Below, one piece after another: positions 48,817 to 51,327 of a DNA stretch of 64,000 bases. Position numbers: made by a program. Origin of the DNA: Escherichia coli (GTDB taxonomy: Bacteria; Pseudomonadota; Gammaproteobacteria; Enterobacterales; Enterobacteriaceae); NCBI RefSeq assembly GCF_045037415.1, contig NZ_CP173438.1, one strand, 5' to 3'. The stretch's first letter is position 1; the number at the start of each line of letters is the position of its first letter.

Positions 48817-51327
48817 TTACGCAGCCAGGTACTTGAACTGCATGGCATCAGCCACGGCTCTGCCGGAGCAAGAAGCATCGCCACAATGGCAACCCAGAGA
48901 GGCTACCAGATGGGGCGCTGGCTTGCTGGCAGACTCATGAAAGAGCTGGGGCTGGTCAGCTGTCAGCAGCCGACTTACCGGTATAAACGTGGTGGTCATG
49001 AACATGTTGCTATCCCTAACTACCTTGAACGGCAGTTCGCCGTGACCGAGCCAAATCAGGTGTGGTGCGGTGATGTGACCTATAGTGTGCCCGGAGTTCA
49101 GGGCGGGCATGGATGCTTAAATGAACCGCGAGTCTGTCTGGAATATTGAGCCGGTAACTCACGATGAGAAACCCAACAATCCCACCGGGTGTGACGGTGG
49201 AGAACCTGAGCGGCAGTGACCTGCGGCATGCCCGCAGGGTGATGTAACCCGCTGACAACGGGGATTGAGGCGAGATCACTAAGCCGAGATGATCCTCAAG
49301 GTTAAGTACTGAAAGGCTGAAGAACATGAACCCGTTAATCCGCCTCTGTGGGTTGAAAACGTCACCACGGCCTACGTGATCTGACAGGCCGTGCAGGAGG
49401 AACTGGCAGTGATACGTAAGCACTGCCGGTCGAAGGTGTTTTGACATGTATGCGAAACACCGGGGCAGCAGCGTCTATCACGCTTGCGTTGCTGACTTCT
49501 GCCAACTTGCGGCAAGCAAGGATAAAGAGTGCGACGGGCAGCCTCCTCAGTATGCCTGAGTCCAGGCAGGTAAACCGGGGAAGGTCAGCGACGGATGTTA
49601 AGGGGGCATGGCTCCGATGACGCGCTGGCTGGCGGAGCTTCCGTAGTAGTCCGCGATGGGGAAAGCCCATTACATGGCGAAGGGAAGCAGTTTGAATGTG
49701 TTTGCGACGTGAATTAACTGACCTAACGAGGTGAAGACCTTTGATAATCAGCGAAATGCAACGCAAGCTTGCCACATGGGCAGTCACCGATCCGTCCCTA
49801 CGGATTCAACGGCTGCTGCGTCTGATAACACAACCAGAATGGCTGGCTGAAGCGGCGCGGATCACGCTTTCATCAAAGGGGGCCCATACCCCCGGCGTTG
49901 ATGGCGTGAACAAAACAATGCTACAGGCCAGACTGGCTGTTGAGCTGCAAATCCTCAGGGATGAATTACTCTCAGGCCACTACCAGCCCTTGCCCGCCAG
50001 ACGGGTTTACATCCCTAAAAGCAACGGCAAACTGCGACCACTGGGTATCCCCGCGTTGCGGGATCGTATTGTTCAGCGGGCCATGCTGATGGCGATGGAG
50101 CCGATATGGGAGAGTGATTTTCATACGCTCTCATATGGCTTCCGGCCTGAGCGCAGTGTCCACCACGCGATCCGCACGGTGAAATTACAGCTCACAGACT
50201 GTGGTGAAACCCGGGGACGCTGGGTGATTGAAGGCGACCTGTCCAGTTACTTCGACACCGTACATCATCGACTGCTGATGAAGGCTGTACGCCGCAGGAT
50301 CAGTGACGCACGTTTCATGACTCTGCTGTGGAAAACCATCAAGGCGGGACATATCGATGTCGGTTCTCTTTCGGGCGGCCAGTGAAGGTGTGCCACAGGG
50401 CGGTGTTATATCGCCGCTATTATCGAACATCATGCTGAATGAGTTCGATCAATACCTGCATGAGCGCTACCTGAGCGGGAAAGCCAGAAAAGATCGGTGG
50501 TACTGGAATAACAGTATCCAACGGGGCCGAAGTACGGCGGTCAGAGAAAACTGGCAGTGGAAACCCGCGGTGGCGTACTGCCGCTATGCCGATGATTTTG
50601 TCCTCATCGTCAAAGGCACCAAAGCACAGGCGGAAGCCATCAGGGAGGAGTGTCGGGGTGTGCTCGAAGGCAGTCTGAAACTCAGGCTGAACATGGATAA
50701 GACTAAAATCACCCATGTTAATGACGGCTTTATCTTTCTGGGGCACAGGATCATTCGCAAACGCAGTCGTTATGGCGAGATGCGAGTGGTCTCAACGATC
50801 CCGCAGGAGAAAGCCAGAAACTTCGCCGCATCGCTGACAGCACTGTTATCAGGCAACTACAGTGAAAGCAAAGTCGATATGGCTGAACAACTCAACCGAA
50901 AACTGAAAGGCTGGGCCATGTTCTATCAGTTCGTTGATTTTAAGGCCAAAGTCTTCAGTTATATCGACCGTGTCGTGTTCTGGAAGCTGGCTCACTGGCT
51001 GGCCCGCAAATACCGTACAGGTATCGCTTCCCTGATGAGGTGGTGGTGTAAATCACCGAAACCGGGTCAGAGCAAAACGTGGGTTTTATTTGGTAAAACC
51101 AATCACGGCAAGCTCAGCGGCGAAATACTGTACCGGTTGGTGGGGCAAGGCAAGAAGCTGTTCCGCTGGCGGCTACCCGAAGGTAATCCCTATCTGAGGA
51201 CGGAGACCAGAAACACGTATACATCGCGCTTTACAGAAGTGGCAATGGCGTTCGCCAGCATTTAAATGGAGAGCCGGATGCGCTGAAAGGTGCACGTCCG
51301 GTTCGGGGAGGAGAGGCAGGGAAATAG

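Follow-up and report, generated by a model that had tools for sequence, protein, structure and literature searches.

In the 64,000-nt stretch of the Escherichia coli contig NZ_CP173438.1 analyzed here (referred to as the window), a group II intron lies within an insertion sequence, and the gene for its reverse transcriptase (RT)/maturase, ltrA, is broken into two reading frames. The locus raises the question whether this intron copy has truly lost its maturase or whether the break arose during sequencing and assembly. Two overlapping open reading frames were found on the plus strand, at 49741-50385 and 50357-51265, which share a stretch of 29 nt (50357-50385). The ORF listing returned the same coordinates as the initial annotation, where a 214-aa and a 302-aa product had been described. 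The first fragment ends with ...KAGHIDVGSLSGGQ, the frame being lost after ...KAGHIDVG. The second reads MSVLFRAASEGVPQGGVISPLL... and picks up the true LtrA sequence again at ...LFRAASEGVPQGG. For the first fragment a length of 209 aa is more likely, as the ATG at 49756 matches the annotated start of the intact gene.

Positions 49050-51500 of the window were aligned with an intact copy of the intron in NZ_AP022482.1, in which ltrA encodes the 502-aa protein WP_001189123.1. Over the 2,451 nt, the sole difference was an extra T at 50364/50365, changing GTCGGTCTC to GTCGGTTCTC. When one T was removed from the window ltrA, a 502-aa product identical to WP_001189123.1 was obtained, and the intron, then 2,270 nt long, matched three intact copies exactly. 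The frameshift is thus really present in the sequence as given, and a +1 insertion is confirmed as its cause, in line with the single-base indel proposed earlier. The frame is broken at residue 203/204, within the Pfam domain RVT_1 (residues 86-332) and upstream of the maturase domain GIIM (356-421). RT sequence hence continues over the break, as had been noted from the two fragments. Against TIGR04416 the repaired protein scored 341 bits (cut-off 300), and this match, together with those to RVT_1 and GIIM, bears out the assignment of the split gene to an intron-encoded RT/maturase. Both the RT and the maturase (X) domain are found in the protein once a single base is repaired, the ORF being split in the window as written. 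The coordinates of all features are compiled in Table 1.

Table 1. Features of the intron, its host element, the split ltrA gene and the methylation motif sites (window coordinates).
Feature	Position	Strand	Remarks
5' exon: ISEc52 (IS911-like, IS3 family) orfA and 5' part of orfB	48395-49084	+	to ...GDVTY; coordinates converted from the EC958 annotation
Group II intron E.c.I4	49085-51355	+	2,271 nt here, 2,270 nt in intact copies; 5' GTGTG, 3' ...CTCTAC
ltrA fragment 1, N-terminal RT	49756-50385	+	209 aa from ATG 49756; 214 aa from TTG 49741
ltrA fragment 2, remaining RT and maturase (X) domain	50357-51265	+	302 aa
GGTTCTC, Eco31I/M.EcoMI site GGTCTC disrupted by duplication of T3	50362-50368	+	window sequence; methylation positions from PMC4659465
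+1 insertion behind the frameshift	50364-50365	+	TT here, single T in all intact copies
Second intron site, GGTCTC	50788-50793	+	intact here; altered in 4 of the 6 other extra-T assemblies
Third intron site, GAGACC (GGTCTC on the minus strand)	51203-51208	+	intact here; altered in 4 of the 6 other extra-T assemblies
Intron domains V-VI	51269-51355	+	Rfam RF00029 Intron_gpII, 64.9 bits, gathering score 40, E = 1.2e-11, full model 1-77
3' exon: rest of ISEc52 orfB	51356-51835	+	starts IWTGKRWAY...

The intron has the consensus ends of its class (5' GUGYG, 3' AY), with GTGTG at 49085 and AC at 51354-51355. Its insertion is precise, since position 49084 is joined directly to 51356 in the strain EC958, where the site is empty. 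The host element is identical in sequence to one that is annotated in RefSeq as ISEc52 or 'IS911 family'. The interrupted gene, initially named IS911 orfB, is indeed an IS911-like orfB of the IS3 family, but the element is annotated as ISEc52 and is not IS911 proper. We infer that the intron is E.c.I4, because E.c.I4 targets IS629, IS911, ISEc16 and ISEc31 and has left a remnant, ykfC, in K-12 (PMC3522654). The ykfC remnant derives from part of this element, whose ltrA is of the WP_001189123.1 type, and was among the matches to a 70-mer around the extra T. E.c.I4 copies occupy corresponding positions of ISEc52/IS911 and IS629, as expected of homing to a fixed site in IS3-family elements. The window intron shares with E.c.I4 the domains V/VI, the 5' GTGTG and 3' AC ends, the RT and X domains and the IS3-family target position. 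Once one T is taken out, more than 2,000 E. coli records contain identical copies; the window intron differs from other E.c.I4 copies only in the extra T at 50364/50365 and in its location in this particular ISEc52. The element is a standard member of the known intron family E.c.I4, in which every defining feature tested was found. As given, with the extra T, the intron had no exact copy in 5,426 complete E. coli genomes, the best matches being one base shorter.

We compared the locus with its relatives. The window belongs to the ST131 lineage of E. coli. At positions 1-49084 and 51356-64000 it matches the ST131 strain EC958 with 100.000% identity and with no mismatch or gap over 61.7 kb. The two blocks are contiguous in EC958, which defines the exact intron boundaries and identifies an unoccupied homing site in this strain. 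As the window outside the intron equals EC958 at 100.000%, its sole anomaly is confined to a multi-copy element. A 24-kb region of the locus is held by 341 genomes, and the intron was found at this place only in NZ_OY019088.1 (ST131 isolate 42, Armenia). Over 64 kb, the window and NZ_OY019088.1, its closest relative, differ at three positions. One of these is the extra T; ltrA at this locus has a single T in NZ_OY019088.1 and is annotated as intact. A second, identical E.c.I4 copy with intact ltrA is present in another ISEc52 of the same genome. Inheritance of the lesion by relatives with the same insertion was hence not observed, the only such genome, NZ_OY019088.1, being intact and the six RefSeq records with the extra T (see below) carrying it at other loci. 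Occupancy in the window and in isolate 42, with an empty site in about 340 other ST131 genomes, indicates that this ISEc52 was filled by E.c.I4 very recently within ST131, or that two independent retrohoming events reached the same homing site. The remaining two differences, at 38385 and 16372, are a 1-bp deletion in the relative between fimE and fimA (GGGGCC-TTTTG) and one G/A SNP. As the window agrees with EC958 at both positions, these changes or errors lie on the side of NZ_OY019088.1.

The extra T falls within the recognition sequence of a DNA modification system. EC958 encodes M1.EcoMI (m6A, GAG(m6A)CC) and M2.EcoMI (m5C, GGT(m5C)TC) (Forde et al. 2015, PMC4659465), and GAGACC was found methylated at 100% of its sites in this strain (PMC4659465). 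The Eco31I system sits on GI-leuX and occurs in ST131 clades A and C (PMC4659465). According to the published positions, the duplicated T3 pairs with the m6A of GAG(m6A)CC and adjoins the m5C of GGT(m5C)TC (PMC4659465). Both Eco31I methylase genes are intact in NZ_OY019088.1, about 17 kb past the 3' end of the window, and the chromosome of KE54, another ST131 strain, holds the same two Eco31I-family methylases together with an endonuclease. The source strain of the window is expected to carry the methylases as well, judging from the 100% identity to EC958 and from NZ_OY019088.1, the genes themselves lying outside the window. Recognition sequence and modified positions of this type IIS system of ST131 (Eco31I, M1.EcoMI-M2.EcoMI) coincide with all anomalies reported here, although in the relative the system is encoded beyond, and not inside, the stretch corresponding to the window. 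The other nine GGTCTC/GAGACC sites of the window, two of them in the intron, are correct; the error, if it is an artefact, therefore hits one site only. The restriction genes themselves differ between the two strains. In NZ_OY019088.1 (3578037-3581029) an ISEc52 insertion interrupts the gene for the Eco31I-family restriction endonuclease beside the intact methylase genes, and the restriction arm may have been lost there while methylation was retained. In KE54 the endonuclease is encoded by one intact gene of 1,740 nt (34097-35836 of the KE54 segment).

The occurrence of the extra T in other assemblies was determined with a 70-mer around the site, which matched 2,693 RefSeq records, with a median of 1 and a maximum of 20 matching places per genome. 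A single T was present in 2,683 records and TT in six. With these numbers at hand, a programmed +1 translational frameshift that expresses or regulates LtrA was rejected. The 29-nt overlap of the two ORFs would suit such a mechanism; however, the allele with a continuous ORF accounts for more than 99% of the records, and TT turns up only sporadically and without inheritance. Frameshifting is not known from any group II intron protein family, and the probability of this reading is close to nil.

The six TT records represent different intron copies in different strains, originating from Thailand, Egypt, the USA and China. The affected copies lie in ISEc52 near sat (CUVET20-PYO1, 98194 and the E14 chromosome), in IS629 on F-type plasmids (KE54 and E14 p1) and in IS629 of a prophage (98212). 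A literature search on the CUVET strains returned nothing. When the six records were compared with the consensus intron, all indels and all private differences fell on the three GGTCTC/GAGACC sites, at the window equivalents of ~50363, ~50790 and ~51205. In GGTCTC orientation, the changes were duplication of T3, deletion of C4, C4>T and GGTTCC. Over the six assemblies, 14 changes were counted on the three intron sites, in both motif orientations, and one more in the IS629 exon, where KE54 reads GGTTTC and E14 reads GGTCTC; no indel was observed elsewhere. Even when the site used for selecting the records was left out, eight more private changes were obtained, all of them within 12 of the 2,270 positions. 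The remaining intron differences in these records are substitutions common to copies at the same kind of locus and are thus ordinary lineage polymorphisms. In E14, the same three changes occur in the chromosomal and in the plasmid copy, though the two copies differ by lineage SNPs. Changes of mixed type, in both orientations of one motif, hence recur in independent assemblies. At the two other motif sites the corresponding 70-mers were non-identical in 91 of 2,693 and 121 of 2,409 records, counts that stand without a matched control and include real polymorphism.

The exact 214-aa truncated product was found once among about 15 billion proteins, on a Logan contig. This contig (SRR27972771_417, 2,501 nt), assembled from an independent read set, shows the extra T as well, here in an intron copy that lies in IS629, and ends inside the second GGTCTC site (window equivalent 50790). 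The break of the assembly graph at this site fits heterogeneous calls there. The 5' exon variant of the contig matches strain 98212.

Recurrence at a methylated motif might also indicate that GGTCTC is a true mutational hotspot, where Eco31I methylation or restriction recurrently inactivates the intron in Eco31I-positive hosts, for example through m5C deamination or repair slippage. The repeated changes at the motif agree with this, and C4>T (GGTTTC) is the product that m5C deamination would yield. However, neither the insertion of T nor the deletion of C can arise by deamination, and Eco31I cleaves 1 and 5 nt outside its recognition site rather than within it (PMC4659465). The identical changes in the two E14 copies, which are distinguished by lineage SNPs, are better explained by the assembly than by independent mutations, and the site is intact in more than 2,680 records, many of ST131 included. 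A hotspot is thus very improbable. If it did exist, duplication of T or loss of C would disable the E.c.I4 maturase time and again in ST131 and other lineages with Eco31I, and an unrecognised link would connect a restriction-modification system with retroelement decay.

Altogether, the extra T is very probably a modification-induced base-calling error that was left uncorrected in a multi-copy repeat, and the frameshift is then not biological. This reading follows from the identity of 61.7 kb of unique sequence to EC958, with one indel that lies in a multi-copy element and on the modified bases of a motif, and from the identity of this indel to an error in the assembly of KE54. For KE54, PCR-free ONT R10.4.1 sequencing, Flye assembly and Pilon polishing are documented (PMC11324015), the platform being documented for this one of the six comparison assemblies. 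The window would likewise have been assembled from long, nanopore-type reads of native, methylated DNA, the nanopore origin being deduced here, and the extra T would be a consensus error. In ST131 strains, Eco31I methylates GGTCTC on both strands, giving m5C at C4 and m6A opposite T3, and base-callers misread such modified positions; here T3 would have been called twice, with GGTTCTC as the result. As several identical intron copies would be present per genome, alignment-based polishing with short reads would be unreliable, and the error could survive in perfect unique surroundings. The closest relative does hold at least two identical intron copies, and the unique flanks in the window are free of errors.

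Methylation motifs are known to dominate the consensus errors of nanopore assemblies (PMC6591954; PMC11610573), and errors in repeats often outlast alignment-based short-read polishing, as stated in the Polypolish abstract. The changes described here resemble the known nanopore errors at methylation motifs such as Dcm CCWGG (Wick et al. 2019, PMC6591954; Lohde et al. 2024, PMC11610573). In both cases a short motif methylated by the strain is affected in both orientations by changes of mixed types, which are found again in independent assemblies and, within repeats, are not removed by alignment-based polishing. Unlike in the Dcm and Dam cases, the motif is here the strain-specific Eco31I site GGTCTC. 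No relevant paper on nanopore errors at this particular motif (GGTCTC/GAGACC) was retrieved in a literature search. A sequencing error, which the initial annotation had mentioned as also possible, is hence the better-supported reading, given the doubly methylated Eco31I motif and the mixed errors at this motif in unrelated assemblies. The consequences drawn there, a defective maturase and a permanently interrupted IS transposase gene, are probably moot, as the T lies in a methylated GGTCTC, recurs in unrelated assemblies and is absent from NZ_OY019088.1. The real gene would encode an intact LtrA of 502 aa, and E.c.I4 would have retrohomed here very recently as a copy that still functions.

A genuine, very recent +1 T insertion that inactivates the RT/maturase of this intron copy is the principal alternative, and we regard it as unlikely. 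New group II intron copies are made by an error-prone reverse transcriptase during retrohoming, which would allow for such a mutation. The sequence as given does contain the extra T. Elsewhere the window shows no error with respect to EC958, so that the assembly is otherwise accurate, and the other nine motif sites are correct. In addition, decay of group II intron copies does occur in enterobacteria (PMC3522654). Decay would, however, be limited to one base here, as no other difference from the intact allele accompanies the insertion, and the gene is intact in NZ_OY019088.1, the one other genome found to carry the intron here. Moreover, a true mutation would have struck precisely the methylated base pair and duplicated there a lone T outside any homopolymer, and its coincidence with the motif-wide error signature of six unrelated assemblies would have to be due to chance. 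Should the frameshift nevertheless be real, this copy would need LtrA from other, identical E.c.I4 copies acting in trans, both to be spliced out of the ISEc52 transcript and to remain mobile. Trans action of a group II intron maturase is established for Ll.LtrB, and an identical intact ltrA elsewhere in the genome, as in NZ_OY019088.1, could plausibly provide the protein, in line with the paralogous maturase proposed in the initial annotation. A real frameshift would then only mean that one very young copy of a multi-copy intron is inactive.

The frameshift reported for this ltrA gene is most likely not a real feature. Its biological weight is small, the intron being the well-known E.c.I4 and the gene most likely intact. 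A base-calling error at the modified motif would have its main bearing on the use of genome data. Long-read assemblies of ST131 and other Eco31I-positive E. coli can hold false indels at GGTCTC/GAGACC. Such false indels would outlast polishing in repeated elements and then enter the databases as pseudogenes annotated 'frameshifted', as appears to be the case in six RefSeq complete genomes. When active and decayed introns, or pseudogenes in general, are counted in genomes of this kind, GGTCTC/GAGACC sites would need to be masked or checked again.

Several further features of the window were noted. The gene fimB (minus strand, ~39811-42303) is interrupted by the ISL3-like element ISEc53 with a ClbS/DfsB-family passenger gene, the insertion extending from ~40231 to 42105. 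The arrangement is identical in EC958, and interruption of fimB by ISEc53 is a known trait of ST131. At ~2682-8953, on the minus strand, a type I restriction-modification operon (M, S, R) is located beside a gene for an mrr-like endonuclease. This operon probably corresponds to EcoMII (AACN4CTTT) of Forde et al., judging from the number of genes that separate it from Eco31I. The gene yjhQ (GNAT acetyltransferase, 52656-53207) is a complete ORF of 183 aa in the window and carries a 'frameshifted' flag from PGAP in EC958 and NZ_OY019088.1, a discrepancy that looks like an annotation matter. The helicase gene yjhR (47226-48371, minus strand) is truncated and lacks its N-terminus, likewise in EC958. 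As the left end of ISEc52 abuts the truncated gene, insertion of the element or an associated deletion appears to have removed part of yjhR.
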